A stretch of 64,000 nucleotides of DNA from an uncultured Anaerolineae bacterium (GTDB lineage: Bacteria; Chloroflexota; Anaerolineae; VGOG01), in the NCBI GenBank assembly GCA_964390805.1, contig CAYMKL010000014.1:706-64705 (forward strand), given 5' to 3'. The translations under genes were made by a program, and so were the position numbers. The notes beneath the pieces were generated by a model. The model saw only the letters and a program-made list of their open reading frames with translations. It searched no databases and was not told the DNA's origin. Within the stretch, counting starts at the first letter, position 1, and every line of letters begins with the position of its first letter. This document shows, one piece after another, positions 15,676-33,700 of this stretch.

Positions 15676-15729
15676 CTCATTGATAACCCATCAACTTCGG
15701 GAACTGGTGTTTCAGATCAGGAAGATCGA

Positions 15730-18256: not shown

Positions 18257-18330
18257 CAAAATCATAGGAGGATGTTATACTTTTGCGCCAACAAGATGAG
18301 AACAACATCACGGCTTTCTGAAGGGACAGA

Positions 18331-18417: not shown

Positions 18418-18690
18418 GTGAAGTATTGGCGAAAGCCACTGGACATCGAACAACAGGAGATCCCTCGTGGTCGAATCCACATTTTGAGGGAACGGTGCAA
18501 GGGTTGTGGCTTCTGCGTGGAATATTGCCCACGCCGTGTGCTGGAGGTATCAGAAGAGTTTAACACTAAAGGCTATCACCCGCCTCGCATCAAAGACGAG
18601 GCGGCTTGTGTCAACTGTGGTCTTTGCGAGATGCTCTGCCCTGAGTTTGCCATCTATTTGAATGAAGCGGGGGAGGTGCCGGTACCGTGA
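18418..18690 (+). CDS. korD: 2-oxoacid:ferredoxin oxidoreductase delta subunit (2x[4Fe-4S] ferredoxin)
   Basis: 90 aa; CKGCGFCVEYCP and CVNCGLCEMLCP motifs; GTG start after GGGAGG; overlaps korA start. Confidence 0.8.
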   Translation: MKYWRKPLDIEQQEIPRGRIHILRERCKGCGFCVEYCPRRVLEVSEEFNTKGYHPPRIKDEAACVNCGLCEMLCPEFAIYLNEAGEVPVP

Positions 18691-19847
18691 ACGGAGATGG
18701 GGTTCTGACTGGTGAGTTCTTCATGATGGGCGACATTGCCTGCGCCGAGGGGGCGATCTCCGCCGGTTGCCGTTTCTTTGGCGGCTACCCCATCACTCCG
18801 GCTACGGAAGTTGCCGAACGCATGGCTGCACGGATGCCCCAGGTGGGGGGGACCTATATCCAAATGGAGGATGAGCTGGCCTCCGTGATTGCTGTGCTGG
18901 GAGCTTCGTGGGGCGGGGTCAAAGCCATGACCGCTACTTCTGGCCCCGGTTTCAGTTTGATGATGGAGAACCTGGGCCTGGGGATCATGACCGAGACCCC
19001 TTGTGTGCTGGTTAATGTGCAGCGGGGTGGCCCGTCCACGGGATTGCCCACTCTGGTGGCACAGGGCGACATGATGCAAGCTCGCTGGGGCTCGCACGGC
19101 CCCTATGAGATCATCGCCCTGGCCCCCAGTTCCCCCCAAGAGCTTTTCGATTTGACCATCCGCGCCTTCAACCTCTCTGAGAAATACCGCACCCCGGTGC
19201 TGGTCATGACCGACGCTGAAGTGGGGCACATGACGGAGAAAGTAGTCATTCCCCCGCCAGAGGAGATCGAGACCTTCTCGCGCCGCAAGCCCACTGTTCC
19301 TCCCCATGAATATCTACCCTATAAGGCCGACGACGATCTCGTGCCCCCTATGGCCAACGCTGGCGAAGGCTACCGCTTTCACATAACGGGACTCACCCAC
19401 GACGATCGTGGCTACCCCGGCATGGACGCCAAAACCCAGGAGATATTGATCAATCGCCTGGTCGAGAAGATCAGAAGGAACAAGGACGATATAATTCAAC
19501 TCGAAGAGGATAGGTTAGAGGATGCTGAAGTAGTGGTCTGCTCCTATGGCATCTCCGCTCGCACGGCCCTCTGGCCGGTGGAGTTGGCCCGGCGGGAAGG
19601 CATAAAGGTGGGCACTTTGCGGCTGATTACGGTCTGGCCCTTTCCTGAGGAACAGATCAGGCAGTTGGCCAGGAAGGTGAAGGCTTTCGTTGTGCCAGAG
19701 CTGAACTATGGCCAGATCGTCCTGGAAGTGGAACGTTGCGCTGCTGGTCAGGCTGAGGCGATCCTGGTCCGCCATGCCGGCGGCGACATCCACAAGCCGG
19801 AGAAGGTACTGGAAGCGATCAGGAGGGCAGCAAACGGTGATCAGTAA
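18687..19847 (+). CDS. korA: 2-oxoacid (2-oxoglutarate/pyruvate):ferredoxin oxidoreductase alpha subunit
   Basis: 386 aa; ACAEGAISAGCRFFGGYPITPATE...TATSGPGFSLMMENLG typical KorA/PorA. Confidence 0.88.
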   Translation: MNGDGVLTGEFFMMGDIACAEGAISAGCRFFGGYPITPATEVAERMAARMPQVGGTYIQMEDELASVIAVLGASWGGVKAMTATSGPGFSLMMENLGLGIMTETPCVLVNVQRGGPSTGLPTLVAQGDMMQARWGSHGPYEIIALAPSSPQELFDLTIRAFNLSEKYRTPVLVMTDAEVGHMTEKVVIPPPEEIETFSRRKPTVPPHEYLPYKADDDLVPPMANAGEGYRFHITGLTHDDRGYPGMDAKTQEILINRLVEKIRRNKDDIIQLEEDRLEDAEVVVCSYGISARTALWPVELARREGIKVGTLRLITVWPFPEEQIRQLARKVKAFVVPELNYGQIVLEVERCAAGQAEAILVRHAGGDIHKPEKVLEAIRRAANGDQ

Positions 19848-19857
19848 TCAGTGTTAG
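19837..19857. repeat. heptamer array (ATCAGTG/AGTAATC) at korA 3' end
   Basis: ggtgatcagtaatcagtgtta. Confidence 0.5.
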
Positions 19858-19870
19858 GAGGTGAATAAGA

Positions 19871-20776
19871 ATGGCGAACAAGAGCAACAAACAGGCAATA
19901 ATCTCGAAACCCGAAACTCGAACCCCAAAACTCGAAACCCCAAATCCGAAACCCGACAGTCATCCTATGGACTATCTGCTGCGAGAGGATCGTCTGCCCC
20001 ACATTTGGTGCTCTGGGTGTGGCATCGGCGTGGCTTTGACCTGTTTTATCAAGGCCCTCCAGAAATCGGAGCTGGATTTGGACAAGGTGGCGGTGGTCTC
20101 AGGTATCGGCTGCACGGGGCGGGTGGCTGGCTACGTCAAGCTCGACTCCTTCCACACTACTCACGGGCGAGCGATCCCCTTCGCCACCGGGCTGAAGCTG
20201 GCCAATCCTGAGCTCAAAGTGGTGGTCTTCAGTGGCGACGGCGACCTGATCGCCATCGGCGGCAATCACCTCATACACGCCGCTCGCCGCAACTTAGATG
20301 TGGCCGTCATTTGCGTCAACAACTTCAATTACGGCATGACCGGTGGGCAGGTGGGACCGACCACGCCTCCAGGGGCCAGGACCAGCACTTCGCCCTACGG
20401 CTGCTTCGAGCACCCTTTCAACCTTCCCTACCTGGCTGCGGCTAGCGGAGCGGTGTACGTGGCCCGCTGGACGGCCCTTCACGTACGACGCCTGGAGAAG
20501 TCTATCCTCAATGCACTGCACAAAAGGGGGTTTAGTTTTGTGGAAGTCATCTCCCCTTGTCCCACTTTGTATGGTCGCTGGAACAAACAGCGCACGGGCC
20601 TGGCCCAGATGCAGTATTACCATGACCGGGGTGTCATAAAGCACGGCATTGATCCCAAAGAAGCTGACATTGATCTGCATGGGGAGATCATCGAAGGAGT
20701 GTTTGTGGACATCGAGAAGCCCACTTTTCTCGACTTCTGCAACGCGGCATTAACCAAAGGCATCAGTGATCAGTGA
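19871..20776 (+). CDS. korB: 2-oxoacid:ferredoxin oxidoreductase beta subunit (TPP-binding)
   Basis: 301 aa; WCSGCGIG...GIGCTGR...FSGDGD TPP motif; AGGAGGTG RBS before 19871; first 32 aa are encoded by a heptamer array. Confidence 0.88.
   Translation: MANKSNKQAIISKPETRTPKLETPNPKPDSHPMDYLLREDRLPHIWCSGCGIGVALTCFIKALQKSELDLDKVAVVSGIGCTGRVAGYVKLDSFHTTHGRAIPFATGLKLANPELKVVVFSGDGDLIAIGGNHLIHAARRNLDVAVICVNNFNYGMTGGQVGPTTPPGARTSTSPYGCFEHPFNLPYLAAASGAVYVARWTALHVRRLEKSILNALHKRGFSFVEVISPCPTLYGRWNKQRTGLAQMQYYHDRGVIKHGIDPKEADIDLHGEIIEGVFVDIEKPTFLDFCNAALTKGISDQ
19906..19957. repeat. heptanucleotide tandem array (CGAAACC family) encoding the N-terminal extension of KorB
   Basis: aaacccgaaactcgaaccccaaaactcgaaaccccaaatccgaaacccgac encodes KPETRTPKLETPNPKPD; reverse-complement family at 42030-42066. 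Confidence 0.6.
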
Positions 20777-20818
20777 TTAGTAAACAATGCCCGCTGATTA
20801 CTGATTACTCGTAACTGG
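20761..20818. repeat. inverted heptamer arrays (ATCAGTG ... TGATTAC) forming a hairpin between korB and korC
   Basis: catcagtgatcagtgattagta...ctgattactgattactcgtaactgg. Confidence 0.6.
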
Positions 20819-20834
20819 GCAAACCGGGGGAGTC

Positions 20835-21392
20835 ATGAGTCGAACAGAGATACGCTTAACTGGCTTTGGGGGGCAGGGCATCATTCTCTCAGGTTACATA
20901 ATAGGCAAAGCGGCGGCCATTCACGACAAGAAACAGGCCACTTTCACCCAGAGCTATGGCCCTGAGTCGCGAGGAGGAGCTTGTAGCGCTCAGTTGGTTA
21001 TCTCTGATGAGCACATTAGCTACCCTCATCTCACCGACCCGTCCATCTTAGTCGTGATGTCGCAGGAGGCCTACAACAAGTATGCTCCAACTCTGGGAGA
21101 AAAGGCTCTGCTCATCGTTGACGAGGACCTGGTGGAGATGGGCGAGGTAGCTGGCGATGTGAAGCTGCTCTCGGTCCCGGCTACGCGCCTGGCCGAGGAG
21201 CTGGGGCGGAAGATCGTGGCCAACATCGTCATGCTGGGCTTCTTCGCCGCTGTGACCGACGTGGTCTCCGTAGAGGCCATGCGGGAGGCAGTTCTTACCT
21301 CAGTCCCCAAAGGAACCGAGGAGTTGAACTCGAAGGCTTTTCAGAAGGGGTACGAGTACGGATCAGTGAACAGTAATCAGTGGACAGTCTGA
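20835..21392 (+). CDS. korC: 2-oxoacid:ferredoxin oxidoreductase gamma subunit
   Basis: 185 aa; IRLTGFGGQGIILSGYIIGKAA...QSYGPESRGG typical KorC/PorC. Confidence 0.88.
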   Translation: MSRTEIRLTGFGGQGIILSGYIIGKAAAIHDKKQATFTQSYGPESRGGACSAQLVISDEHISYPHLTDPSILVVMSQEAYNKYAPTLGEKALLIVDEDLVEMGEVAGDVKLLSVPATRLAEELGRKIVANIVMLGFFAAVTDVVSVEAMREAVLTSVPKGTEELNSKAFQKGYEYGSVNSNQWTV

Positions 21393-21420
21393 TTACTGAT
21401 TACTGGTAACTGGTAACTGT
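21361..21420. repeat. inverted heptamer arrays (ATCAGTG/TGATTAC/TGGTAAC) hairpin between korC and downstream gene
   Basis: gatcagtgaacagtaatcagtggacagtctgattactgattactggtaactggtaactg. Confidence 0.6.
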
Positions 21421-21433
21421 CCCGGGAGACACC

Positions 21434-24400
21434 ATGACCAATCCGGTATTGATCTTGGGCGGGAGCATTGGTGGCCTGCAGGCTGCTCTTGATCTAGCCA
21501 ACTCAGGGCTAGAAGTATGCCTGGTAGAGAGATCGCCCTTTCTGTGTCCTGAGCCTGTCGAAGGGCTTGAGGGTGATGTTGCAACGCCCTCGCACCTTCT
21601 GGCAAGCAAGTTCCTGGAGGCAGTTAAACACCCAAACATCCAGGTGTTCACCAATGCTGAGGTGACGCCCCCCCTTCATCCCCCCCAAAGCTGGGGGGGA
21701 AAAGCGGGAGGGCGGGGCGATTTCCAGATCGAGCTGCAGCAGCACCCCCGCTACGTGGACATGGCCAAGTGCACGGCTTGCGGAGAGTGCGTCCCCGTCT
21801 GTCCCGTGACGATACAGCGCCCCAGCGTCGTAGCGCCCCAGCGTCCAAGCGAGCAGCGCGTAGACGCCAAGACGCTTGGACGCTTCGACGCTGATCGACC
21901 CATCTACAAGCCCGATAACGCTGTGCCGAGCATTTTCGCCATCGAAAAGCGCGAGCCAGCGCCCTGCAAAGTAGCCTGCCCAGCCGGCATCCACGTCCAG
22001 GGCTACGTGGCCCTCATCGCCCAGGGCAAATCCGCCGAAGCCCTGGCCCTGATCCGCGAAGCCATCCCCTTCCCAGGCATCTGCGGCCGCGTCTGCCACC
22101 ACCCCTGCGAGGATGCCTGTCGGCGGGCCGAGCACGACCAGCCAATTGCCATCCAATACCTCAAGCGCTTTGTAGCAGATTGGGAAAAGTCCAACCTCCA
22201 ACCCCCAACCTCCAACCTCCAATGTCCAATATCCAATATCCAATATCCAACCAAAGTTGCCATCGTCGGCAGCGGCCCCGCCGGCCTCACTGCCGCCTAC
22301 TTTTTGGCCCGCGATGGCTATCCTGTCACCGTCTTCGAAGCCCTGCCTGTAGCTGGTGGCATGATGGCGGTGGGTATCCCCGCGTATCGCTTGCCCAGAG
22401 ATGTCCTCCAAAGCGAGATCGAGGCCATCAAGGATTTGGGGGTGGAGATCCGCACCAACACCGTCGTCGGCCCGAACGGTGATTTGTCTTTGGATGACCT
22501 CAGAAGGGACTACGATGCCGTGTTCGTGGCGGTGGGCGCTCATGGCAGCCGTAAGTTGAACGTTGAAGGTGAAGATTTAGCCGGCGTGCTTCACGGGGTA
22601 GATTTCCTGCGGGAGGTGAACCTGGACCCTTCGACAGGCTCAGGGCGCGGCCGGGAGGTCACGGTCGGCCAGAAGGTGCTGGTGATCGGTGGAGGCAACG
22701 TAGCCATTGATTCGGCCACGGTAGCCAGGCGATTGGGAGCACAGCAAGTCACCATACTCTACCGTCGTTCCCGCGAGGAGATGCCCGCCAATTCATGGGA
22801 GATCGAGGAGGCTGAAGAAGAGGACGTCGCCTTTCAATTTCTGACGACGCCGACCAGGGTGTTGGGCGAGAATGGACGGGTGACCGGGTTGGAATGTCTG
22901 CACATGGAGCTGGGCGAGCCCGACGAGAGCGGGCGAAGACGGCCCATGCCCCTCCCCGGTTCGGAGTTCGCGGTTGAGGCGGATACGGTTATTGTGGCCA
23001 TTGGCCAGGTGTTGGATATTGGATATTGGATATTGGAGGCCTGCCCTGAGCCTGGCCTAAGGGTTGGAAATTGGATCGTCGCGGATCCTGTGACTCTGCA
23101 GACGAATCTGGAGGGCGTTTTCGCTGGCGGCGATGCGGTGACGGGGCCGGCTACGGTCATCGAGGCCATCGCCGCGGGGAAGCGGGCGGCCGAGTCCATC
23201 GCGCGATACCTTAGGGGCGAAGACCTGGCCACCGGACGCAGGTTGGGGCGGCCTGACATCTCCGGCATCGAGTACTACACCCCACCCGTCGTCGAGCCAG
23301 AAGCCAGGGTGCCAATGCCCAAGCTCTCCTTAGCTGAAAGAGTGGATTTTGCCGAGACCAACCTGGGCTTCAGCGAGAGGGAGGCCATGGCCGAGGCGGA
23401 GCGCTGCCTCTCCTGCGGCGTCTGCTCTGAGTGCCTGGAGTGCGTCAAGGTCTGCGAGCCGGGAGCCATTGACCACAACGCTCAATGGGAGCGCCTGAGC
23501 CTGAACGTGGCGGCGGTGATTCTAGCGGATGGCAGGCAACAGCAGGGTGTGTATTCGATTAAGCCTGGGGACGCGTTAGAAGCCTCCGCTGCCGCTGCCA
23601 AAGTCATGGCCGACCTGGCCGCGTATCGAACATTCCCTCCAGTTCCCTCTTTCCCTTCTCTTTCCGCCCCTTCCAGAATTGGCGTGTTCGTCTGCTGCTG
23701 TGGCAACGAGATCAGCAGCGTCGTGGATGTTGATGTGGTGGTAGGCGAGATTTGCCGTTTGCCCGGCGTGGCTCTCGCTGAGAATGTTCCCTTTGCCTGC
23801 CATGAGGAGGGGACGGCGGCCATCCAGCAGGCCATCGTCGAGGAGGACCTGGATCGGGTGGTGCTGGCTGCCTGCTCTTGCTGCTCCCTCGACCAGGTCT
23901 GCGACAGTTGTACCTACCAGCGGGTGCGCTGCAAACTTCAAACGCTAAACTCTAAACTCCAAACTGGCTTCGAGTTTGTCAACATCCGCGAGCAGTGTGC
24001 CTGGGTGCACGCCGACGAGCCGCATAGAGCCACGGCCAAAGCCAGGAGCATCATCGCCTCTGCCGTAGCCAAGGCGCGTCAGGATGAAGCCAGGGCCAGG
24101 AGCACTGTTTCCCTCGACCAAAGCGTGTTGGTGATCGGGAACGGGATAGCTGGCGCGGTTTGCGCCGACGCACTACAGGCCCAAGGTTTCCAGGTTTTCC
24201 GAAGCGAGCCCCCGCCTCTGACTGTGAGAGGCTCCGTAGGCAACTTCACGGCGATCATGCCTGAATCAGGCGGGGAACGGGAGCTGAGGATCGGTGCCAT
24301 CGTCCTGGCCTCTGAGGGCGAGTTGGATATTGGAAATCCGGGAGTCTTCGCCTACGATCCGGAAGATGGGTGTGATCCGCAGGTCTGGGGTTTGGCCGTT

Positions 24401-24697
24401 GCCTCCAGGGTCGCGGCTTTGCTGAACAGGGGTTGGGCCCTGGTCGAGCCCGTCGTGGCCCAGGTTGATCCTGCCCGATGCCGGGCATGCGGTACCTGCC
24501 AGGAGATCTGTGGGTTCCACGCCGTCAGGGTGCGCGAGAATGGACGGGGTGTCCTGGTAGCTCAGGTGGATGAAGCCGCCTGCCTGGGTTGTGGCACCTG
24601 CGCCGCTCACTGTCCGTCGGGGGCGATCACGGCAGGCTATTCGACGGATAGGCAAATCGAAGCGATGCTAGTTGAGTTGGTAGGTTGTAGGGGGTGA
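21434..24697 (+). CDS. large FAD/FeS oxidoreductase: HdrA-like domains fused to a GltD-like NAD(P)H-binding domain (HdrL/Flox-like)
   Basis: 1087 aa; N-terminal GGSIGGLQAALDLA FAD fold; CTACGECVPVCPV 4Fe-4S; GltD-like block (CKVACPAGIHVQGYV, KVAIVGSGPAGLTAAYFLARDG); second half (IGVFVCCCGNEI...NIREQCAWVH) alignable with hdrA 28017-30638; C-terminal CRACGTCQEIC and CLGCGTCAAHC. Confidence 0.8.
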   Translation: MTNPVLILGGSIGGLQAALDLANSGLEVCLVERSPFLCPEPVEGLEGDVATPSHLLASKFLEAVKHPNIQVFTNAEVTPPLHPPQSWGGKAGGRGDFQIELQQHPRYVDMAKCTACGECVPVCPVTIQRPSVVAPQRPSEQRVDAKTLGRFDADRPIYKPDNAVPSIFAIEKREPAPCKVACPAGIHVQGYVALIAQGKSAEALALIREAIPFPGICGRVCHHPCEDACRRAEHDQPIAIQYLKRFVADWEKSNLQPPTSNLQCPISNIQYPTKVAIVGSGPAGLTAAYFLARDGYPVTVFEALPVAGGMMAVGIPAYRLPRDVLQSEIEAIKDLGVEIRTNTVVGPNGDLSLDDLRRDYDAVFVAVGAHGSRKLNVEGEDLAGVLHGVDFLREVNLDPSTGSGRGREVTVGQKVLVIGGGNVAIDSATVARRLGAQQVTILYRRSREEMPANSWEIEEAEEEDVAFQFLTTPTRVLGENGRVTGLECLHMELGEPDESGRRRPMPLPGSEFAVEADTVIVAIGQVLDIGYWILEACPEPGLRVGNWIVADPVTLQTNLEGVFAGGDAVTGPATVIEAIAAGKRAAESIARYLRGEDLATGRRLGRPDISGIEYYTPPVVEPEARVPMPKLSLAERVDFAETNLGFSEREAMAEAERCLSCGVCSECLECVKVCEPGAIDHNAQWERLSLNVAAVILADGRQQQGVYSIKPGDALEASAAAAKVMADLAAYRTFPPVPSFPSLSAPSRIGVFVCCCGNEISSVVDVDVVVGEICRLPGVALAENVPFACHEEGTAAIQQAIVEEDLDRVVLAACSCCSLDQVCDSCTYQRVRCKLQTLNSKLQTGFEFVNIREQCAWVHADEPHRATAKARSIIASAVAKARQDEARARSTVSLDQSVLVIGNGIAGAVCADALQAQGFQVFRSEPPPLTVRGSVGNFTAIMPESGGERELRIGAIVLASEGELDIGNPGVFAYDPEDGCDPQVWGLAVASRVAALLNRGWALVEPVVAQVDPARCRACGTCQEICGFHAVRVRENGRGVLVAQVDEAACLGCGTCAAHCPSGAITAGYSTDRQIEAMLVELVGCRG
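21549..21566. repeat. PEPVEG/LRQAQD element copy
   Basis: cctgagcctgtcgaaggg encodes PEPVEG. Confidence 0.55.
21667..21718. repeat. C7/G7 palindromic element inserted in-frame
   Basis: cccccccttcatcccccccaaagctgggggggaaaagcgggagggcgggg encodes PPLHPPQSWGGKAGGRG; near-identical copy at 30003-30050. Confidence 0.75.
22189..22250. repeat. heptamer tandem array (CCAACCT/CCAATAT) in-frame
   Basis: ccaacctccaacccccaacctccaacctccaatgtccaatatccaatatccaatatccaa encodes SNLQPPTSNLQCPISNIQYP. Confidence 0.65.
22627..22645. repeat. PEPVEG/LRQAQD element copy
   Basis: cccttcgacaggctcaggg encodes DPSTGSG. Confidence 0.5.
23012..23066. repeat. heptamer array TTGGATA x3 (inverse of 22189-22250) plus partial PEPVEG element
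   Basis: gttggatattggatattggatattggagg ... cctgccctgagcctggcctaagggttgg encodes VLDIGYWILEACPEPGLRVGNW. Confidence 0.6.
23932..23966. repeat. heptamer tandem array (CAAACTC/TAAACTC) in-frame
   Basis: gcaaacttcaaacgctaaactctaaactccaaactgg encodes KLQTLNSKLQT. Confidence 0.55.
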
Positions 24698-24866
24698 GTA
24701 CCATCTCTACCTGGCGGAGGAGCTGGGGTATTTGCAAAACGAAGATGCGAAAAGGCTATCGGCGATCAGCGATGAAGCAGCCAAAACCCTGCAGGGCCTC
24801 ATCAAATGGTTGGAAAAGCAGCTCCGAGCCGGCAAGCTCACCAAAGACGACCTGAAACGGTGAGCC
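24684..24866 (+). pseudogene. C-terminal remnant of a four-helix-bundle protein (23S rRNA IVS protein family), no start codon
   Basis: Frame +1 relative to upstream gene, open only from 24684: YHLYLAEELGYLQNEDAKRLSAISDEAAKTLQGLIKWLEKQL; matches C-terminal consensus (LgYi...ee...l.....ei.kmL.gLIk.L) of that family; bracketed by GGTTGTAGG and CCTACAACC repeats. Confidence 0.3.
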
Positions 24867-24900
24867 TACAACCTACCATCTACAACCTACTACCTGCTCA
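24866..24900. repeat. heptamer array CTACAAC/CTACCAT upstream of mvhD
   Basis: cctacaacctaccatctacaacctactacctgctc. Confidence 0.55.
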
Positions 24901-24911
24901 GTGGAGAAGCA

Positions 24912-25301
24912 ATGGCTGAAACGGAACCACGTGTCGTTGTGTTCACTTGTAACTGGAATGCCTACAGCGCGCTGGAGACGGCCGGCTCTAGGCGATTGGC
25001 TTATCCGGCCAACGTGCGCCCCATCCGGGTGATGTGCCTGGGACGGCTGCATCCGGGCCTCATTCTCAAGGCGTTTGAGTTGGGAGCCGATGGTGTCTTG
25101 CTCCTGGGCTGCCCGCCTGGAGAATGTCACTACGAGTTCGGCAACGAGCGGGTGGAAGAGCTTTTCCAGGAAACCAGCGCCATTGCCCATCTCCTGGGCA
25201 TCAAGGACGAGCGGTTGAAGCTGGATTCGGTGGGAGCAGGGGAAGGTGAGGCCTTCGTTCAGAAAGTGGCGGAGTTCTATCGGCAGGTTGTAGGGTTGTA
25301 G
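24912..25301 (+). CDS. mvhD: MvhD-like hydrogenase/heterodisulfide reductase iron-sulfur subunit D
   Basis: 129 aa; VVFTCNWNAYSALETAG...MCLGRLHPGL...GCPPGECHYEFGN Cys pattern of MvhD. Confidence 0.8.
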   Translation: MAETEPRVVVFTCNWNAYSALETAGSRRLAYPANVRPIRVMCLGRLHPGLILKAFELGADGVLLLGCPPGECHYEFGNERVEELFQETSAIAHLLGIKDERLKLDSVGAGEGEAFVQKVAEFYRQVVGL

Positions 25302-25347
25302 CAAGTAGTTGTAGCTATTTACTACAACCTACCATCTACCTACTGGA
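25285..25347. repeat. inverted heptamer arrays GTTGTAG ... CTACAAC (hairpin) at mvhD 3' end
   Basis: caggttgtagggttgtagcaagtagttgtagctatttactacaacctaccatctacctactgg. Confidence 0.55.
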
Positions 25348-25352
25348 GAACC

Positions 25353-26531
25353 ATGGAAGCCATTAAGCACATCATCAACAACACCAAAGCCTATTATTGC
25401 CTGGAGTGCGGCAAGTGCACTGCGATTTGTCCCATCTCGCGCCGGGAAGCTACCTACTCGCCTCGCCTGACGGTGGAGAGGGCCTTGTGGGGCGAAGGAG
25501 AGGAGCTATTGACCGATGCGCTGCTCTGGTCTTGCCTCACTTGCCAGCAATGCTCGACGCGCTGCCCCTCGGCTGTTCATTACGTGGAGTTCATCCGTGA
25601 CATGCGAGCTTTGGCGCGCGGGGAGGGTGAGGAGGGGCTCTGTTCGCACGGCGAAGCGATCCAGACCTGGATGCGGATGATGGCTTCGCCCGAGTTGAAG
25701 CAAAACCGCTTGGAGTGGCTCGATGAGGATCTAAAGGTTTCTGCCGACTCCGACACCGTCTACTTCGTCGGCTGCCTGCCGTATTACGACGTTCTTTTCA
25801 ACAAGATCGGCGCCCAGGGTGTGGAGATTGCCCAAAGCGCCGTCAGGGTGCTCAACCGATTGGGCATCAAGCCCATCATCTTGGAGAACGAGCGCTGCTG
25901 CGGCCACGACCTTCTGTGGGAGGGCGATGTCGCCAACTTCCGCAATCTGGCCGAACCGAACATCGCGATGCTCCAGGCGACAGGGGCCAAGCGCATCGTC
26001 ACCACCTGCCCCGAGTGCGCTCGCACACTAAAGGTTGACTACCCCGCCCACGTAGGCGACCTGGGGATGGAGGTAGTGCACATTTCACAGCTTCTGGCGG
26101 ATTGGAAGTTTGAAGTTGGAACTTCCCCCCCAAAGCCTGCCCTGAGCAAGGTCGAAGGGTTGGGGGGGATTGAGGGGGGGCTTAAAGTCACCTATCACGA
26201 TCCCTGTCGCCTGGGGCGGCACCTGGGCGTATACGAGGAACCGCGCCAGGTCATGAGTGTCCTGGGCCTGGAGTTGGTAGAGATGGAGCACAGCGGCAAG
26301 AACGCCCTGTGCTGCGGCACCAGTTGTTGGACCAATTGCGGGGCCGTCAACAAGCAGATCCAGGTGGACCGCCTGCGTGAAGCCCAGGCCACCGGTGCCG
26401 AGTTATTGGTTACTGCCTGCGCCAAGTGCCAGATCCATTTCAAATGCGCTCTGGACGATGCAAGAGTCAGTAACGAGATAGGGATTGAGATACGCGATTT
26501 GGTCACTTTGGTGGACGAAGCATTGGCTTAG
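25353..26531 (+). CDS. HdrC-HdrB-like fusion (2x4Fe-4S ferredoxin domain + two CCG cysteine-rich domains)
   Basis: 392 aa; CLECGKCTAICP and CLTCQQCSTRCP; CCGHDLLW and ...CCGTSCW...CAKC CCG-domain motifs. Confidence 0.8.
   Translation: MEAIKHIINNTKAYYCLECGKCTAICPISRREATYSPRLTVERALWGEGEELLTDALLWSCLTCQQCSTRCPSAVHYVEFIRDMRALARGEGEEGLCSHGEAIQTWMRMMASPELKQNRLEWLDEDLKVSADSDTVYFVGCLPYYDVLFNKIGAQGVEIAQSAVRVLNRLGIKPIILENERCCGHDLLWEGDVANFRNLAEPNIAMLQATGAKRIVTTCPECARTLKVDYPAHVGDLGMEVVHISQLLADWKFEVGTSPPKPALSKVEGLGGIEGGLKVTYHDPCRLGRHLGVYEEPRQVMSVLGLELVEMEHSGKNALCCGTSCWTNCGAVNKQIQVDRLREAQATGAELLVTACAKCQIHFKCALDDARVSNEIGIEIRDLVTLVDEALA
26097..26187. repeat. compound repeat: TTGGAAG heptamers + C7/G7 element carrying a nested PEPVEG element
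   Basis: ttggaagtttgaagttggaacttCCCCCCCAAAGcctgccctgagcaaggtcgaagggttGGGGGGGattgagGGGGGGG encodes WKFEVGTSPPKPALSKVEGLGGIEGGLKV in-frame in hdrCB-like gene. Confidence 0.7.
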
Positions 26532-26608
26532 TTTGGAAGTTGGACGTTGGAAGTTGGATGCTGGATGTTGGCCTTCAAATCTCTGACTTCCAACCTCTAA
26601 TCTCCAAC
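26532..26608. repeat. inverted heptamer arrays (TTGGAAG x5 ... TTCCAAC/CTCCAAC) intergenic hairpin
   Basis: ttggaagttggacgttggaagttggatgctggatgttgg...cttccaacctctaatctccaaca. Confidence 0.65.
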
Positions 26609-26620
26609 AAGGAGGAGGAA

Positions 26621-27961
26621 ATGGTTGAGAGAAAGATCGTGGTCATCGGTATGGGCTATGTGGGCATTCCTTGCGCAGTACTCTTGGCCGATGTGCCCGG
26701 CCACCAGGTGATAGGAGTGCAACGTCGCTCCGAGCGCTCCGGATGGAAGATTGATGTCTTGAATCAGGGCAAAAGCCCCTTTGAAGGAGACGAGCCAGGG
26801 CTGGCCGAGCTGATCGCCCGGGTGGTGGAAAAGGGAACGTTCCGAGTGACAGACGACATTTCGGTCTGTAAGGACGCCGACGTCATCTTGATTGACGTGC
26901 AGACGCCGACCGATACCCGCAGGGTCCCTCAATATCGCTCCCTGCGCGAGGTCAGCACCAGCGTAGGCCAGTACATGCAGAAGGGCACTCTGGTGACTAT
27001 TGAATCAACAGTCGCGCCCGGTACGACGCAGAACATCGTGCAGCCCATCCTGGAAGAGACCTCCGGACTGAAAGCGGGTCAGGACTTCTACCTGGCTTTT
27101 TCCTACGAGCGGGTGATGCCGGGCAAGCTTCTGGAATTCATGGTGGATTTCCCTCGCGTGGTGGGGGGCATTGATGCCAAGAGCACGGAGTTGGCAGTGG
27201 AGCTGTACAGCACCATTGTCCGGCAGGAGATCACGGCCACCGACGTCCTCACCGCCGAGCTGGCCAAGACGGTGGAAAACGCCTATCGGGACGTCAACAT
27301 CGCTTTCGCCAACGAAATAGCGCTGATCTGTGAGAGCCTGGGAGTGGACGTCTACGAGATGCGGGGGCTGATCAACGCCCGCCCGGACCGCTACATGCAC
27401 ATTCCAGGAGCCGGCGTGGGCGGACATTGCCTGCCCAAAGACACCTATTTGCTGCGCTTTGGGGTGAAGGAATACGGCTCCCGCGACGTGGACACGGCGA
27501 TGATCACCCTGGCCCGCCGTATCAACGACGCCATGCCGGATCAGATGGCTCGTCTGGTGGAGGAGGCGCTGACTGGGGTAGGCAGGGAGGTCAAGGGATC
27601 GCGGGTGGCCGTCTTGGGGCTCGCCTACCTGGAGGATTCGGACGATGTCCGCAACACCCCGGCTGAACCGCTGATCAATACCTTGCGGGCCAGAGGTGCC
27701 TGGGTCATGGCTCACGATCCCTTTGTCTGGGGCTACCAGGGCAAGGAGCTGACCCGTGATCTGGATGAAGCTCTGCGCGGAGCCGACTGTCTGGCCCTGG
27801 TCACCAAACACCAGATGTACTTTGGGTTGGATCTGGAGCGCGTGAAGGGATTAATGCGCACGCCGGTCATCGTTGATGGACGCAACGTCTTTGACGCAAC
27901 AACGTGCCGGGAAGCGGGGTTTGTTTATCGGGGAATTGGGAAGGGGATGCATGAAACGTGA
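26621..27961 (+). CDS. nucleotide-sugar dehydrogenase (UDP-glucose/GDP-mannose dehydrogenase family; WecC/WbpA-like)
   Basis: Start ATG 26621 after GGAGGAGG RBS (frame open from 26540 inside repeat); KIVVIGMGYVGIPCAVLLA Rossmann; GHCLPKD catalytic-Cys motif. Confidence 0.82.
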   Translation: MVERKIVVIGMGYVGIPCAVLLADVPGHQVIGVQRRSERSGWKIDVLNQGKSPFEGDEPGLAELIARVVEKGTFRVTDDISVCKDADVILIDVQTPTDTRRVPQYRSLREVSTSVGQYMQKGTLVTIESTVAPGTTQNIVQPILEETSGLKAGQDFYLAFSYERVMPGKLLEFMVDFPRVVGGIDAKSTELAVELYSTIVRQEITATDVLTAELAKTVENAYRDVNIAFANEIALICESLGVDVYEMRGLINARPDRYMHIPGAGVGGHCLPKDTYLLRFGVKEYGSRDVDTAMITLARRINDAMPDQMARLVEEALTGVGREVKGSRVAVLGLAYLEDSDDVRNTPAEPLINTLRARGAWVMAHDPFVWGYQGKELTRDLDEALRGADCLALVTKHQMYFGLDLERVKGLMRTPVIVDGRNVFDATTCREAGFVYRGIGKGMHET

Positions 27962-28003
27962 AACGTGAAACGTGAAGCGTGAGGACCACGTTTTACGTTT
28001 TCG
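27954..28003. repeat. inverted heptamer arrays (GAAACGT x4 ... ACGTTTT x2) hairpin between sugar dehydrogenase and hdrA
   Basis: gaaacgtgaaacgtgaaacgtgaagcgtgaggaccacgttttacgttttcg; supplies ET* terminus of upstream gene. Confidence 0.65.
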
Positions 28004-28016
28004 ACGGGAGGTGCAA

Positions 28017-30638
28017 ATGGCTAAGCAAGACCTGCGCATCGGCGTTTTCGTCTGCGACTGTGGGCTCAACATCGCTGGGAGCGTGGACACCGAGGCGGTG
28101 CGGGAGTACGCCGACACGCTGCCCGACGTGGTGGTGGCGGTTGGCAACAAGTACACCTGCGCCGACCCCGGCCAGCAGGAGATCAAGCGCCACGTGGTGG
28201 AACACAGGCTCAACCGGGTGGTGGTGGCCTCTTGTTCGCCCCGCCTGCATGAGCCAACCTTCCGCAACTGCATTCAGGAGGTGGGCCTCAATCCCTATCT
28301 CATGGAAATGGCCAACATTCGGGAGCACTGCTCCTGGGTGCATCTCCACGACAGGCAGGCGGCCACCCGCAAGGCCGAGGACATCGTGCGCGCGGCGGTG
28401 GCGCGGACCCGCTGGCTCCTTCCCCAGATCGAGGAACAGTTGCCCGTGACCGACGCAGTGCTGGTCATCGGCGGGGGTGTGGCTGGCATCCAGGCCTCTC
28501 TCGACCTGGCCGACGCCGGCCATCAGGTCTATCTCGTAGAAAAGGAGCCCTCCATCGGTGGGATCATGGCCAAACTGGACAAGACCTATCCCACTATGGA
28601 CTGTAGTATATGAATACTGGGCCCCAAGATGATGGATGTCGGTCGGCATCCCAAGATCGAACTTTTAGCTTATAGCGAGGTGGAGGACATCTCTGGCTAC
28701 GTGGGCAACTTCAAGATCAGAGTGCGCAGGAAAGCCCGCTACGTGGACGAGAGTGAGTGCACCGCCTGCGGCGACTGCGTCCCGGTCTGCCCGGTGGTCA
28801 AGCCCGACGAGTTCCAGACGGGCCTCTCCAGCCGCCGAGCCGTCTACATCCCCTTCCCCCAGGCTGTGCCTTCTTCGTATATCATCAACATCCAGGAATG
28901 TCTGGGCGATAACCCCATTGCCTGCGGCAAGTGCATGGAGGCTTGCGACAAGAAGTGCATTGATTTCGACATGCAGGATGGGATCGTCGAATTCCAGGCA
29001 GGGACCGTCATCGTAGCTACGGGGATGGAAGCCTACGACCCCACAGAGATGGATGAGTACGGCTATACTCGCTACGAGAACGTCATCACCAGCCTGGAGT
29101 TCGAGCGGCTGATCTCTGCCGGCGGTCCCACCGAAGGCCATTTAGTCCGCCCCACCGATCGGCGGACGCCCCAGCGCATCGGCTTCGTGCAGTGCGTCGG
29201 CTCCCGCTCCCAGGCTCGTACTGAGCCCGGTCGAAGTAATGGGCGGGGCAATCCCTACTGCTCCAACATTTGTTGCATGAACACCGTCAAAGACAGCCTC
29301 CTGCTCAAAGACCACTACCCAGACACCGACATCACCGTTTTCTACATGGACATGCGGGCTTTTGGCAAGGGCTTTGAAGACCTCTACATGCGCTCCAAAG
29401 CGGCGGGGGTCAGGTACATCAGGGGCTTGCCGGGCGAGGTGACGGAGGATGCCGAAACGCGCAACCTGCGGGTCTGGGTGGAGAATACCAGCGCGCGGCG
29501 GCTGGAGGAACACGAGTTGGACATGCTGGTGCTCTCCATCGGCGCCGTGCCCCGCCAAGACAGCGAGGTGGTCAAGCAACTCCTCACCCTCTCCCGCACC
29601 TCCGATGGCTTCTTCATGGAGTCGCATCCCAAGCTGAAGCCAGTGGACGCGCCGACGAAGGGCGTCTTCCTGGCCGGCTGTGCCGAATCGCCCAAGGACA
29701 TCAAAGACTCAGTTACCCAGGCCTCTGCCGCCGCCTCTCGCGCCGAGATCCTGTTGAGTGCTCCCACCATCAAAGTGGAGGCCATCACCGCCGTTGTTGA
29801 CGAAGCGCTGTGCAAGGCCTGCGGACTGTGTGCCCCGGTTTGTCCTTATGGCGCTATCACCTGGGAGAAGAAGCAGACGGCCCACGTGATCTCGGCCGCC
29901 TGTGCTGGGTGCGGCACTTGCGCCGCCGAATGTCAATATGAGGCCATCACCATGCGCCACTTCTCCGACCAGGCCATCTACGCCATGATAGATGCCATGC
30001 TCTCCCCCTTCATCCCCCCCAAAGTTGGGGGGGAAAGAGGGGGGGCGGCCAAGCCGCCCATCGTGGCTTTTGCCTGCAACTGGTGCTCGTATGCGGGAGC
30101 GGACACGGCGGGGGTGGGGCGCATGGAATACCCGCCCAATGCTCGCCTGATCCGCACCATGTGCTCCGGGCGAGTTGATCCTGAGTTTGTGTGGTACGCC
30201 TTCCGGAAAGGAGCGCCAGTGGTGCTGGTCTCCGGCTGTCACTACGCCGATTGCCACTACATCAACGCCAACCGCCAGACCGTGCGCCGTGTTGACGCCT
30301 TGTGGGAGGGCCTGGAGAAGCGGGGTGTGCGTCCTGAGCGCTTGCAGTTGGACTGGGTCAGCGCCGCCGAGGGGCAGAAGTGGGCCAAAGTGATGCAGGA
30401 TCTGGACGAGCTGTGGGCGGGGGTCACAGCCGAGGAAATGGAGCAGACTCGCCAGGCGTTGAAAGAGGCCAAGACGCCCATTCGTGGCTCCCTCGACCGG
30501 CTAAAGAAACCGACGGCGGCCACGATGGTTTGTGTGCGCTGCGGCAACAAGTGGGATGTCACCTACGATCCTGCTGTGGACGAGGAGCGTATGTGCTCGA
30601 AGTGTCGGAGCAACAGCGTGCGGGTGTTGATCGTGTAA
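28017..30638 (+). CDS. hdrA: heterodisulfide reductase subunit A fused to C-terminal MvhD-like domain; predicted selenoprotein (in-frame UGA 28611-28613)
   Basis: ATG 28017 after GGAGGTG (frame open from 27972); 27972-28613 and 28629-30638 share frame, separated only by TGA; readthrough gives FPTMDCSI-U-ILGPKMMDVGRHPKIELL = conserved HdrA motif with Sec at Cys position; downstream 4Fe-4S motifs; C-terminal CNWCSYAG...CSGRVD...GCHYADCHY MvhD domain. Confidence 0.75.
28611..28613 (+). other. predicted selenocysteine (UGA) codon within hdrA
   Basis: TGA aligned to the second Cys of the HdrA DCSxC-ILxPK motif. Confidence 0.6.
28634..28651 (+). promoter_or_regulatory. candidate SECIS-like hairpin downstream of UGA
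   Basis: GGAUG-UCGGUCGG-CAUCC, 5-bp stem, loop contains GGUC; begins 21 nt 3' of UGA. Confidence 0.3.
30003..30050. repeat. C7/G7 palindromic element inserted in-frame in hdrA
   Basis: cccccttcatcccccccaaagttgggggggaaagagggggggcgg encodes PFIPPKVGGERGGAAKP. Confidence 0.75.
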
Positions 30639-30671: not shown

Positions 30672-30706
30672 AAAGCCCCTCGGTTGTCATTTTACCGAGG
30701 GGCTTT
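30672..30706. terminator. bidirectional rho-independent terminator between convergent hdrA and giant gene A
   Basis: AAAGCCCCTCGG (30672-30683) / CCGAGGGGCTTT (30695-30706) perfect 12-bp stem, 11-nt loop, A/T-rich flanks. Confidence 0.6.
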
Positions 30707-30757: not shown

Positions 30758-33700
30758 TCACCGCGTACCGATCACCAGCAAATCGAACGGGCCGACCGAG
30801 CGGATGTTCCCGGCCCGGTCCAATGCCTCTACCTGCAAGGTGTACAGGCCAGCCGTCTTCGGCCTGGGCGTGTAGCTCCACGTCGAACCGCCCCGATCCG
30901 CGACGTGCCAGAAGGAGTCACCCTCGGGCGTGTCCAGACGAACGTAGACCTCGCTCACGCCGCCGCCGTCGCTGACCGTGCCGACCAGCACCGGCGGGGG
31001 CGCCGTCTCGGTCGCCTTGTCCGTATCCGTGACCGGCTGGTACGCATCCAGCAGGATTTCGCTGATATGGGTGATGACGGCCACTGCTGGCGGGACGGTG
31101 TCCACCTGATAGGTGCGGCTCAGCGGCACCGTCGAGCGGTTGCCCACCGCGTCGAGGCCGTAGAAGGCGATGGTCTGGTACTCGCCGTCCGCGTCCTGCA
31201 CCGTCGCCGGGGCGTAGGTCCAGGTGCCGGTGGGCGTCGTACCCGGGCGCACGTCCACAGGCCAGCAGGTTGGTTCGTCCGGAGCGACTGAAGTCGCTAC
31301 TACGGTGCTCTGCCGGCCCCTGTTGCTTCCCTTCATCTCCAGCCCTTCGGCCTCGCTCAGGACAAGTGGCAGGTAGATGGTGTAAGGATACCGCCTACGC
31401 GCCGGACTGACGCAGACCTCCAGCCCGCTGGCCTGCCGGTCGTCGTGCACCTGGCCCGTGAAGAGGTGCTCGCCGAGGCCCAGCACCGTGTCAACCAGCG
31501 CCGCGTCCACGTCGGCGTCGAGGGTGACGGTGGGCGGGGTGGTGTCCACGATCAGCGTCAGCCAGTCCGTCCAACTGCTGGTGTGGCCCAAATCGTCGGT
31601 GGCCTGGGCGCGCAGCGCGAACTGGTCGCCGTCGTTGGCTGCACCCACGTCCCAGAGGCACGACCACTGGCCGTCCTCGTGGGTGGCGTCGGGGCAGGCG
31701 ATGGTGACCGGCGAGCCACCTGGCAGTGCCTGCGCTTCCAGCGTGACGATGGGCACGCCAGAGGGGTCGTGGACGATGCCGTGCACGGCGTTGGCGTAGG
31801 GTCGGATATAGGTTGCCGGTGCTGTAATCGTCAGGCTGATGGGCGCGGCGCTGTCCACGTCGTGCTGCACCCAGATCCAGTCGAAGGTGCCATGGGTGCC
31901 ATCGGCGACGCTGGCCATCACCTCGGCCGAATCGTCGTCCAGGTCGCTCTCCACGATGCCGCTGAAGCCGAGGGTGGCCGTGATGCCTGCGCTCACGTCG
32001 CCCAGGCTCAGCACCAGCGTGTCGCTTCCGGCGAAGTGCAGCGCGCCGCGCGCGGTGGCAGTGACGCGTACGTCGGGGGCAACCTCCGTTCCCTCGTTGG
32101 CATAGCGGACGGTGTAGTTGATGACCTGCCCGTCGTGGACAGGTTCGGGGTCAACGTCGACTGGCAGGACCAGGTCCACGATGGAGTCCAGGTCGGCGTC
32201 GAGGAACTGGTCGGGCGTCAGCAGGCTGTACAGGTCGTGCTCCAGGAAGCCCAACTCGACGCCGGGCGGGTCGGCCACGATGTCGACGTGCACGTCGGCG
32301 TCGGTGAACTGGCCCTCGGCAGGGCAGACTCCCGCTCCCAGCGACGCCCACTCGTACTGCTGGGTGAGGGTGAAGTGCTGCGTCGTGAGGACCGGGCCGG
32401 GGGCGTCAATGACGCGCTCGCTGTTGAGAGGGTTCTTGTCCGGCATAGCGGCCCACAGCCGCAGCCCGTCCTCCTCGCTGGCCAGGGCGACCAGGTCGAG
32501 GGACGTAGCCGCCGGGTCGGTGATGCCCAACAGGTCGAACGGCAGGTAGACGTCGGTGTGGGGCAGTAAGTGGGCGGTGCGCTGTCCTGAGCCTGTCGAA
32601 GGATCGAACTCGTAGTATTGGGGTGGGAGAGGTGCGTCCTCGATCCACTCGTCCCCATCCCAGCGCATCAGCGCGACGGCATCGGCGTCCTCTATCCAGA
32701 GCATGTAGTCGGCCTCCAGTTGGCGGCCGTTTTGGGCCGGCAGACCGATGACGGTCACTTCGGCTGAGCTCAGTGCAGGATTGGTCATCGTAGCGGTGTA
32801 GGGGTTGAAGGCCGTCGTCGCGCCACCGGGTGCACCGGTGTCGAAGTAGACGAAGATGTCGCCATCGCCAGCCCAGTCGGCGCCGCCCCAGGCGAGTCGC
32901 AGGGCCTCGTCGTTCCAGGTCAGGTAGAGCTCCTGGACTTCATTGAGGGCCGCGCCGGTGTGAGCGTTGCGCAGCACTTCACGGTTGACGCCGATCTGAG
33001 AGCAGCCGCTATCCATCCAGCCGTGATAGTTGCCCCCACCCCCGGCCCCTCCCCCAACCCTGGGAGAGGGGAGGATGTAGTCAGGCGTGGTAGGCGTGTC
33101 TGCATAGATGGGTCCCAGGGTGTGCCAGCGTTGGTTGCCGTGCACGTCCTGGGCGACGACGTGGGCATAGAGCGCCTGGGCTTCGCCAGCCTGCTGCTCG
33201 TGGTGGCGGTCTGTGGCCAGAGCGTACGTGGTGAGCGCGGCCAGGTCGGGCGTGGGGCTCTCGGTCCAACCGGCGTAGTAACGACCTAGGTCATCGCTGC
33301 TGCTGGCGGTCCACTCGAGGATGAGTGTGGGGCCGAGGACGTCGCGGATGGTATGGCCGGATGTGAGCACCGTGCGCCTGCCCAGGCCGTTGATGTAAGC
33401 CAGCGTAACGGTGACGGGCGCGGGCTTCACCAGGTCCACGGTGACGGTCTCGGTGACCTGCGCGGTGCGCCCGGCCACGTCGGTGGCGCGGGCGGTGACG
33501 ACGTAGGCCACGCCGTCGGGCTCGCTGCCCAGGTTCCAGGTGTAGCGCCAGGCGCCATCGTGGAGGGAAGCGTCGTTCCAGGCGTCCGAAGTGGTTACCT
33601 GTACCCGCTCTACGCCCCCGGTGTCGGTGACGAGGCCGGTGAGGGCCACGCGCCCCAGGGAGAGGCGATGGGTGGTGGTCAGCACGGTTGGCTCGACGGA

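Follow-up and report, generated by a model that had tools for sequence, protein, structure and literature searches.

In a 64,000-nt stretch of DNA from an uncultured Anaerolineae bacterium (phylum Chloroflexota; contig CAYMKL010000014.1 of assembly GCA_964390805.1), called the window below, we characterized a plus-strand gene series at positions 18418-30638 (ORF, open reading frame, list and translations). It is made up of korDABC, hdrL, mvhD, hdrCB, a gene for a nucleotide-sugar dehydrogenase and an hdrA-mvhD fusion containing selenocysteine (Sec). The reading that we prefer, with a probability of about 0.6, is that this locus represents a conserved nine-gene module encoding an NADPH-dependent Hdr-type bifurcating or confurcating complex, the low-potential branch of which would serve the 2-oxoacid:ferredoxin oxidoreductase (OFOR) Kor. 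Conservation of the gene order in dozens of species of two phyla points to an uncharacterized energy-coupling enzyme system. The first-pass annotation of the window, made from the sequence without database searches, had proposed a bifurcating link between Kor and NAD(P)H. Gene content, motifs and synteny are supportive of such a link, while bifurcation itself we infer from them. The genes were located where that annotation had placed them: korDABC, the HdrA/GltD-like fusion, MvhD and the HdrC-HdrB fusion on one strand and, past an inserted sugar dehydrogenase, the Sec-type HdrA-MvhD fusion. The composition that it gave (FAD, many iron-sulphur (FeS) clusters, CCG domains and MvhD) was borne out by domain and HMM annotation of HdrA, HdrB CCG, GltD and MvhD.

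The gene hdrL (21434-24697, plus strand) codes for a 1087-aa protein, a degenerate HdrA scaffold with an NfnB/GltD-type module inserted in its ferredoxin domain. Residues 176-600 contain Fer4_20 and Pyr_redox_2 domains (GltD/NfnB-like), HdrA-like segments flank them on both sides, and the C-terminus carries a 2x[4Fe-4S] domain. We mapped this anatomy by BLASTP against the window's own HdrA. HdrL residues 1-174 correspond to HdrA 144-294 (the beta-alpha-beta start of the FAD domain and the first half of the inserted ferredoxin domain), residues 748-930 to HdrA 7-180 (the N-terminal Cys-rich domain and a second GxGxxG) and residues 964-1079 to HdrA 543-658 (the end of the flavin domain and the C-terminal 2x[4Fe-4S] domain). 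The HdrA segment 339-542, which includes K425, E363 and a cluster motif, has no counterpart in HdrL; the CxxU position is occupied by a gap or His. The name HdrL, suggested in the first-pass annotation, is apt. HdrL-type proteins were defined in 2009 (Strittmatter) and proposed to oxidise NADH (PMC2702500), and the protein combines the HdrA-like segments and the GltD-like NAD(P)H-binding domain of that definition, with mvhD as the next gene.

The inserted module (HdrL 176-600) aligns end to end, at 42-49% identity, with the NADPH-binding, bifurcating-FAD subunits NfnB/NfnI-L, NfnA (of NfnABC) and StnC. The alignment scores were 420 bits for NfnA of C. saccharolyticus NfnABC, 414 for T. sibiricus NfnA, 384 for StnC, 325 for NfnB and 314 for NfnI-L; the glutamate synthase small subunit scored 222 bits. 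The features of an NfnB-type subunit are all present: Fer4_20 with two [4Fe-4S], FAD and NADPH Rossmann folds and an Arg at the FAD N5 position. This residue, R319, is invariant in 79 homologues; its T. maritima NfnB equivalent, Arg187, is in contact with N5 of the bifurcating FAD (PMC6405883). The FAD motif GSGPAG and the pyridine-nucleotide motif GGGNVA followed by YRRSREEMPA are intact as well, so the GltD-like domain has kept its NAD(P)H- and FAD-binding residues. Thus the nicotinamide input postulated from the sequence holds, with the motif pointing to NADPH rather than NADH, because GGGNVA (GXGXXA) together with YRRSREEMPA occurs as in NADPH-binding NfnB and GltD. We propose HdrL as the NADPH input module. 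Since the inserted module is of the bifurcating NfnB class, HdrL may itself hold a second bifurcating flavin.

Fusion of HdrL with MvhD at its C-terminus was detected in 10 distinct related loci, which argues for physical interaction of the two proteins. Eight related loci have two full-length tandem HdrL paralogues between korC and mvhD; an HdrL heterodimer would fit this arrangement.

The hdrA-mvhD fusion (28017-30638, plus strand) scored 1177 bits with the NF040770 HdrA2 model (cut-off 1100). Its HdrA part aligns with residues 3-649 of Methanothermococcus HdrA (5odc_A, 792 bits) and has the full HdrA domain set, namely the N-terminal FeS, thioredoxin-reductase-like FAD, inserted ferredoxin and C-terminal ferredoxin domains; the FlpD domain of the MvhD part spans residues 682-798. 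E363 and K425 are the equivalents of E356 and K409 in 5odc_A, proposed as marks of bifurcating HdrA (PMC12054007; PMC6405883). The C196-x-x-U199 pair is the counterpart of the Cys-Sec197 pair of M. maripaludis HdrA discussed elsewhere (PMC13518236). The tail of the protein (30420-30638, residues ~800-873) has a four-Cys pattern, C-x-R-C-G..W...E-R-x-C-P-x-C-R-S-N-S-V-R, which has been conserved by the orthologues from Anaerolineae, Dehalococcoidia and Desulfobacterales and looks zinc-ribbon- or rubredoxin-like; it produced no Pfam match at E <= 0.001.

The U199 codon is an in-frame TGA at 28611-28613 (motif DCSI-U-ILGPK). Two observations indicate that this is a genuine Sec codon with a Sec insertion sequence (SECIS) element: UGA is exchanged for Cys codons in orthologues, and a hairpin 3' of it is constrained at the nucleotide level only in TGA loci. 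Of the related loci, 54 have TGA at this position and four, all from Dehalococcoidia, have TGT (Cys). The SECIS-like hairpin GGAUGUC-GGUC-GGCAUCC (28634-28651, plus strand) was found by comparative nucleotide conservation: 25 nt 3' of TGA, ATGATGGATGTCGGTCG[A/G]CATCC, are invariant, all wobble positions included, in 47/47 full-length unique TGA loci. One base alone varies in the general form GGAUGUC-GGUC-GRCAUCC, and its change replaces U.G pairing by U-A. In the Cys orthologues the encoded peptide, KMMDVGRHP, is the same, with wobble positions free and no hairpin. When the SECIS region was folded as a single sequence, its energy was not significant (z = 0.55); the comparative test was used instead.

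The remaining Hdr components are conventional. The free MvhD (24912-25301, plus strand; FlpD domain E = 4e-41), a [2Fe-2S] electron-transfer protein, has four Cys at residues 13, 42, 67 and 72, and both it and the HdrA-fused domain show the MvhD/FlpD features. The hdrCB fusion (25353-26531, plus strand; Fer4_8 plus two CCG domains) encodes the predicted disulfide-reductase catalytic subunit, with two CxxCxxCxxxCP ([4Fe-4S]) motifs, two complete C-Xn-CCG-Xn-CxxC motifs and PDB matches to HdrC; it thus has the motifs of HdrC and HdrB alike. The top NCBIfam match of HdrCB was the thiol:fumarate reductase subunit TfrB; we rejected this assignment (152 bits against a cut-off of 385, and no TfrA present).

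The kor block (18418-21392, plus strand) encodes an enzyme with all domains and motifs of a four-subunit alpha-beta-gamma-delta OFOR. The delta subunit gene korD (18418-18690; Fer4 families) codes for a 2x[4Fe-4S] protein with two CxxCxxCxxxCP motifs, whose best NCBIfam match, OGOR_delta, is under its cut-off. The alpha subunit gene korA (18687-19847; POR_N and PFOR_II) scored 586 bits with PRK08659, the 2-oxoacid:acceptor oxidoreductase alpha equivalog (cut-off 411), 444 bits with PDB entry 1yd7 (Pyrococcus 2-ketoacid:ferredoxin oxidoreductase) and 286 bits with 8ys5 (2-oxoglutarate synthase). The beta subunit (korB, 19871-20776; TPP_enzyme_C), which would bind thiamine pyrophosphate (TPP) and a [4Fe-4S] cluster, has GDG-X-NN at residues 122-151, CxxC at 47-50 and Cys at 47, 50, 81 and 230; the gamma subunit (korC, 20835-21392) consists of a POR domain. 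KorB and KorC are fused in 38 related loci. A second korDABC-like set lies beside the module in several Desulfobacterales and one Chloroflexota locus (five loci, and upstream in two others), usually just 3' of hdrA.

Scanning one genome per species by pattern, we obtained 528 stretches that encode an HdrL relative. The locus counts below come from the best 80 of the 528, onto which the window proteins were mapped by tblastn, and are limited to loci with enough flank. These 80 loci belong to Anaerolineae/Anaerolineales, Ardenticatenales, Caldilineae, Dehalococcoidia and Desulfobacterales or 'Deltaproteobacteria' metagenome-assembled genomes. The genes korA, korB and korC are directly upstream of HdrL on the same strand in 61/61 loci whose upstream flank measures 3.2 kb or more. 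Downstream of HdrL, mvhD is present within 3 kb in 63/67 loci, hdrCB within 3 kb in 61/67 and an hdrA-type gene within 8 kb in 39/42. To judge from these genomes, the gene order is far beyond chance.

Four Dehalococcoidia loci have the nine core genes contiguous, with 17-60-nt gaps, and on this ground we regard the nine genes as the core unit and the sugar dehydrogenase, absent from the contiguous series, as a lineage-specific passenger. Its gene is located between hdrCB and hdrA only in a subset of Anaerolineae and is absent there in Dehalococcoidia and Desulfobacterales. Other Anaerolineae passengers are toxin-antitoxin genes, a hydrolase and a DUF2079 protein. A gap of 2.3-2.7 kb in Desulfobacterales, considered as a clue to the substrate, was ruled out as such: it holds genes for a response regulator and its neighbour, a GAF histidine kinase, again lineage-specific passengers. 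Genes flanking the core differ completely between lineages.

As to the mechanism, the HdrA and HdrCB (plus MvhD) core has everything that the methanogen enzyme has. Within the unit, the NADPH flavoprotein HdrL is the sole candidate for electron input and Kor the sole candidate for the low-potential partner; genes for hydrogenase, formate dehydrogenase, Flx proteins or ferredoxin were found neither among window ORFs nor in the conserved neighbourhoods, in agreement with the hydrogenase-free composition noted at first reading. The module would thus have two parts, the four-subunit OFOR KorDABC and a soluble Hdr-type flavoenzyme complex of Sec HdrA-MvhD, HdrCB, free MvhD and HdrL. HdrL and MvhD would stand in for the hydrogenase MvhAG or the formate dehydrogenase of methanogen Hdr complexes. 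NADPH would be the mid-potential substrate, feeding or formed at the HdrA flavin, and the HdrA FAD would split or merge electron pairs between two branches: a high-potential branch leading through HdrCB to a thiol/disulfide couple, and a low-potential branch exchanged with Kor, via ferredoxin or directly via the two KorD clusters. The predicted net reaction is 2 NADPH + RS-SR' + succinyl-CoA + CO2 <-> 2 NADP+ + RSH + R'SH + 2-oxoglutarate + CoA. From the observed gene content, intact cofactor motifs, Sec decoding signals and cross-phylum gene order we infer complex formation, the electron path, the substrates, the direction and bifurcation itself.

For the direction, we tentatively prefer bifurcation, with NADPH as the driver of reductive 2-oxoacid synthesis or of ferredoxin reduction, at somewhat less than even odds; confurcation during 2-oxoglutarate oxidation has a clearly smaller chance. 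Bifurcation is favoured because the characterized Hdr complexes cited here bifurcate and because DsrC offers a ready disulfide sink in the Desulfobacterales carriers. Bacteria of the Anaerolineae type are not known to make coenzyme M (CoM) or coenzyme B (CoB). In methanogens, reduced ferredoxin from Hdr complexes supports 2-oxoacid synthases. Methanogen Hdr complexes also hand low-potential electrons straight to a partner enzyme that reduces CO2 (PMC13518236). A bolder variant, which we consider unlikely, has Kor and Hdr form one super-assembly, where electrons of NADPH would enter the TPP site via KorD without free ferredoxin and drive carboxylation of succinyl-CoA. The HdrA FAD would bifurcate, perhaps in series with the NfnB-type FAD of HdrL as a second bifurcating flavin, succinyl-CoA would be reductively carboxylated to 2-oxoglutarate, and a disulfide of the cell would provide the pull, DsrC in Desulfobacterales and a novel one in Chloroflexota. 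If true, the super-assembly would be for bacteria, with NADPH as its power source, what the CO2-fixing Hdr-Fwd supercomplex is for methanogens.

Several points weigh against an NADPH-dependent Hdr complex coupled to Kor. HdrL is devoid of the segment that bears K409, E356 and CxxC/U, leaving the electron link from HdrL to HdrA unexplained, and in 3/42 loci hdrA is absent within 8 kb. Both facts would suit a plain, non-bifurcating 2-oxoacid:NADP+ oxidoreductase, in which electrons of Kor would pass along the HdrL FeS chain to the NfnB-type FAD, with HdrA and HdrCB being accessory or a separate thiol-redox system. HdrL by itself does possess about seven FeS-cluster motifs besides an NADPH site, and it always adjoins korC. 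Yet the great majority of loci have conserved hdrCB together with a fully canonical HdrA, whose similarity to the methanogen protein reaches up to 60%, and the inserted module is nearer to bifurcating NfnB-type subunits (314-420 bits) than to GltD proper (222 bits); we rate this simpler enzyme as quite improbable. A further weakness is that related loci contain no Kor-Hdr gene fusion (a KorC-HdrL candidate turned out to be a false positive with a stop codon between the genes), so physical contact of Kor and Hdr is unsupported. Kor and Hdr could then be co-regulated and physically independent, with Kor working on free ferredoxin and Hdr/HdrL acting as a general NADPH:ferredoxin:disulfide balancer like FlxABCD-HdrABC. 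Tolerance of passenger genes at several junctions and the ferredoxin-like delta subunit of Kor, typical of free-ferredoxin OFORs, agree with independence; against it, kor stays beside the HdrL clade in 61/61 loci, even after inter-phylum transfer and with all other flanks changing, and no ferredoxin gene accompanies the module. We consider independence improbable, on a par with the super-assembly.

The remaining objections to the Kor-coupled complex concern its substrates and expression. Chloroflexota have no known thiol/disulfide substrate, and a scan of the window ORFs revealed none encoded near the locus. The series in the window is broken by a 214-nt gap and a passenger gene, so that its co-transcription is presumptive, though the order korDABC-HdrL-mvhD-hdrCB-hdrA is conserved across two phyla; the coupling is deduced from sequence. 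The Syntrophobacter fumaroxidans 'HdrAL/POR' cluster, in the sole cultured organism with a named similar cluster, was not detected in proteomes (PMC5947623). As for the 2-oxoacid, it is the sucCD neighbourhood that argues for 2-oxoglutarate: sucC and sucD are directly upstream of kor in the window and in ~20 Anaerolineae loci, and the 2-oxoglutarate/succinyl-CoA couple is the most likely one for Kor in this genome. A different specificity (pyruvate, branched-chain or aromatic 2-oxoacids), which would link another acyl-CoA/2-oxoacid couple to NADPH, would agree with the name POR given to the S. fumaroxidans cluster (PMC5947623), with sucCD not being beside the module in Dehalococcoidia and Desulfobacterales and with the second korDABC-like set downstream in some Desulfobacterales. 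Moreover, only the generic alpha equivalog passes its cut-off, and the 2-oxoglutarate-specific NCBIfam models, though best or near-best for Kor (delta, beta), score under theirs; still, these matches and that to the PDB 2-oxoglutarate synthase, along with sucCD, make another 2-oxoacid an unlikely choice. Finally, one may ask if the locus is decaying, its in-frame stop, heptamer inserts and passengers being signs of pseudogenes; period-7 repeats within korB, hdrL and hdrCB and a gene remnant in the HdrL-mvhD gap would be in keeping with that. All reading frames are intact, however, all cofactor motifs are present, the repeat inserts preserve the frame and fall in low-confidence loop regions, and the stop is the conserved Sec codon with its SECIS element, so that decay is very improbable.

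Hdr-type flavin-based electron bifurcation has been demonstrated mainly for methanogens; bacterial relatives are mostly without known partners and substrates. Here a bacterial Hdr set gains a defined conserved partner, a 2-oxoacid/acyl-CoA + CO2 couple at ~-500 mV, and a defined mid-potential substrate, NADPH, so that a testable reaction can be written. If correct, the assignment would explain how very low-potential electrons are supplied or disposed of at a step of the tricarboxylic acid (TCA) cycle without hydrogenase or Rnf, and would sharpen the long-standing 'bacterial heterodisulfide' question for organisms without DsrC. The carriers (Anaerolineae, Dehalococcoidia, Desulfobacterales) are abundant sediment and digester bacteria.

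The distances between successive genes from korD to hdrA are -4, 23, 58, 41, 214, 51, ~89 and 55 nt. The 214-nt gap between HdrL and mvhD contains a 54-codon remnant (24699-24863, plus strand) resembling the C-terminus of a 23S-rRNA-intervening-sequence (four-helix-bundle) protein; the Pfam match is weak (PF05635, E = 0.0084, profile positions 74-105 of 106). In related genomes the same junction holds other inserted genes (0.5-3.7 kb), and since the insertions differ we regard it as an insertion hotspot. The nucleotide-sugar dehydrogenase (26621-27961, plus strand; UDPG_MGDP_dh N, central and C domains; 389 bits with TIGR03026, cut-off 190) lies in an ORF open from 26540, with ATG 26621 as the likely start.

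On the plus strand, the series at 13.1-30.7 kb begins with sucC (13106-14254, succinyl-CoA synthetase beta; ATP-grasp_2 and Ligase_CoA), followed by a passenger block (14412-17374; Pfam LamB_YcsF, ParE_toxin, CT_C_D and CT_A_B), sucD (17396-18256, succinyl-CoA synthetase alpha; CoA_binding and Ligase_CoA) and kor. The block consists of pxpA (14412-15188), a 74-aa ORF with a ParE toxin gene (15185-15675), pxpB (15730-16416) and pxpC (16406-17374). PxpABC together make up 5-oxoprolinase, and their genes occupy the same position between sucC and sucD in four close relatives. The sucCD and 5-oxoprolinase context is compatible with glutamate synthesis and glutamate breakdown alike. In several relatives sucC and sucD are just 14-79 nt apart, as opposed to the window with its pxp and ParE-type toxin-antitoxin insertion; conserved operons of this lineage have been repeatedly broken up by passenger genes.

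A promoter-like TTGACA-17-TATACT with a TG extension (11/12 consensus matches) is located 5' of korD at 18253-18281 on the plus strand; promoter-like sites in the region are no commoner than in shuffled sequences, making the korD site a lead only. The terminator named in the first-pass annotation does exist as a hairpin at 30672-30706, between hdrA and a convergent giant minus-strand ORF, with a 12-bp perfect stem, an 11-nt loop and a weak T-tract (as read from the sequence). It is a probable terminator, and a single terminator closing the series is plausible. The consensus scan passed over this hairpin because scan loops were limited to 3-8 nt. Terminator-like matches in the region numbered 14, against 12.3 in shuffles. 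With counts at shuffle expectation and the 30672 hairpin overlooked, we dropped the consensus terminator/promoter scan as a test of operon structure. An Rfam scan of the whole window gave no match.

The window has many short period-7 tandem arrays with differing units (CGAAACC, CTGATTA, TCCAACC, TTGGAAG, TGAAACG and others), located at 19905-19956, 20794-20809, 21389-21419, 22190-22252, 23012-23037, 23940-23965, 24865-24895, 26102-26121, 26533-26571, 27952-27982, 40512-40540, 42029-42059 and 63461-63569. They occupy nearly all intergenic gaps of the cluster as well as in-frame sites within korB, hdrL and hdrCB, and the in-frame ones are translated into loop inserts of low complexity, for example SNLQPPTSNLQCPISNIQYP; other Anaerolineae homologues have different inserts at the same loop positions. 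We take the arrays to be reminiscent of the heptameric short tandemly repeated repetitive (STRR) sequences of cyanobacteria.

Upstream of sucC (73-13016, plus strand) are four large tandem paralogues with a PMT_2-type glycosyltransferase domain plus PA14 and/or NHL beta-propeller domains. Downstream of the series, on the minus strand, two giant ORFs (30758-41695, 3645 aa, and 41863-54648, 4261 aa) with bacterial immunoglobulin (Ig)-like, TSP3, Kelch, FG-GAP and DUF11 domains presumably encode surface proteins; a 211-aa protein with a C-terminal ubiquitin-family domain (54651-55286, minus strand; PF00240, E = 5e-8) is encoded directly downstream of them. The other window ORFs, when scanned, revealed no genes for thiol carriers, hydrogenases or selenium metabolism. 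The closest relatives of the locus proteins come from Anaerolineae/Chloroflexota metagenome-assembled genomes, with identity of <=79% for the 1087-aa protein. The exact MvhD sequence of the window was found on a 3.1-kb Logan contig from run SRR24302423, present in three samples; thus reads of the source organism are publicly available.

A named Kor-Hdr, OFOR-Hdr or Por-Hdr system was not found in the literature searched, whose scope left subscription-journal reviews outside. Papers on Chloroflexi genomes cover HdrABC-MvhD-MetFV, Hdr-IFO and Hdr-Fdh, not an OFOR-HdrL unit (PMC5736913; PMC11650866). On that basis the cross-phylum OFOR-HdrL-MvhD-HdrCB-HdrA(Sec) module appears to be undescribed as a unit and uncharacterized. 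No homologous cluster with a characterized unrelated role, which would have spoken against the link with Kor, came to light there. The sole mention of a similar cluster is one sentence naming 'HdrAL/POR (Sfum_0012-0018)' of S. fumaroxidans, uncharacterized (PMC5947623). Of the two S. fumaroxidans sets, 'HdrABC/HdrL' and 'HdrAL/POR', the latter is the one associated with a 2-oxoacid:ferredoxin oxidoreductase (PMC5947623); we set it beside the window module by description only.

The first-pass annotation had likened the locus to both HdrL and Flox-type complexes. The HdrL likeness stood and the Flox label did not: the locus has no FlxA (FNR-like), FlxB or FlxC domains, only MvhD-like and HdrABC-like parts are shared, and the input is an NfnB-type domain within a degenerate HdrA. 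The FlxABCD-HdrABC complexes of Desulfovibrio and other anaerobes, reportedly treated by Ramos et al. in 2015, are said to use a DsrC-type or unassigned disulfide. Like the module, they combine a nicotinamide-dependent input with an MvhD-like protein feeding HdrABC (PMC5947623); in the window, however, the input comes from another flavoprotein family, is predicted to use NADPH instead of NADH and has an OFOR in its conserved unit. NfnAB, NfnABC and StnABC share with HdrL 176-600 the NADPH-binding subunit with bifurcating FAD and two [4Fe-4S] clusters, but in HdrL this subunit sits within an HdrA scaffold, with MvhD, HdrCB and HdrA alongside; NfnA/S-type (PyrK-like, [2Fe-2S] plus FAD) or NuoE/F-like partner subunits were found neither among window ORFs nor among conserved neighbours.

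Archaeal type III HdrA, described in 2025 and having no OFOR partner, likewise carries a GltD-type domain within the inserted ferredoxin domain of HdrA, with NAD(P)H proposed as the mid-potential substrate (PMC12054007). It keeps a full thioredoxin-reductase domain with K409/E356, whereas the window HdrL is without that segment and CxxC/U; its GXGXXG is read as NADH-specific and GGGNVA with YRR of HdrL as NADPH-specific, and the domain order of HdrL is rearranged. HdrL was rejected as a type III HdrA on both counts, the complete domain with K409/E356 and GXGXXG. The uncharacterized HdrL of Desulfobacterium autotrophicum is also a large HdrA/glutamate-synthase-like fusion followed by mvhD (PMC2702500), but its loci adjoin dsrABC or fdh genes and two of the proteins are selenoproteins; the window HdrL is Sec-free and of an invariably kor-linked kind.

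With the methanogen HdrABC-MvhAGD and Fdh/Vhu-Hdr-Fwd(Fmd) supercomplexes the module shares a canonical HdrA, the Cys-Sec pair, MvhD, HdrC and a two-CCG HdrB, and in both cases an enzyme for CO2 fixation, the low-potential partner, is encoded alongside (PMC13518236). The module differs in having the NADPH flavoprotein HdrL as predicted input in place of a hydrogenase or formate dehydrogenase, and a TPP-dependent 2-oxoacid oxidoreductase as predicted partner in place of formylmethanofuran dehydrogenase.

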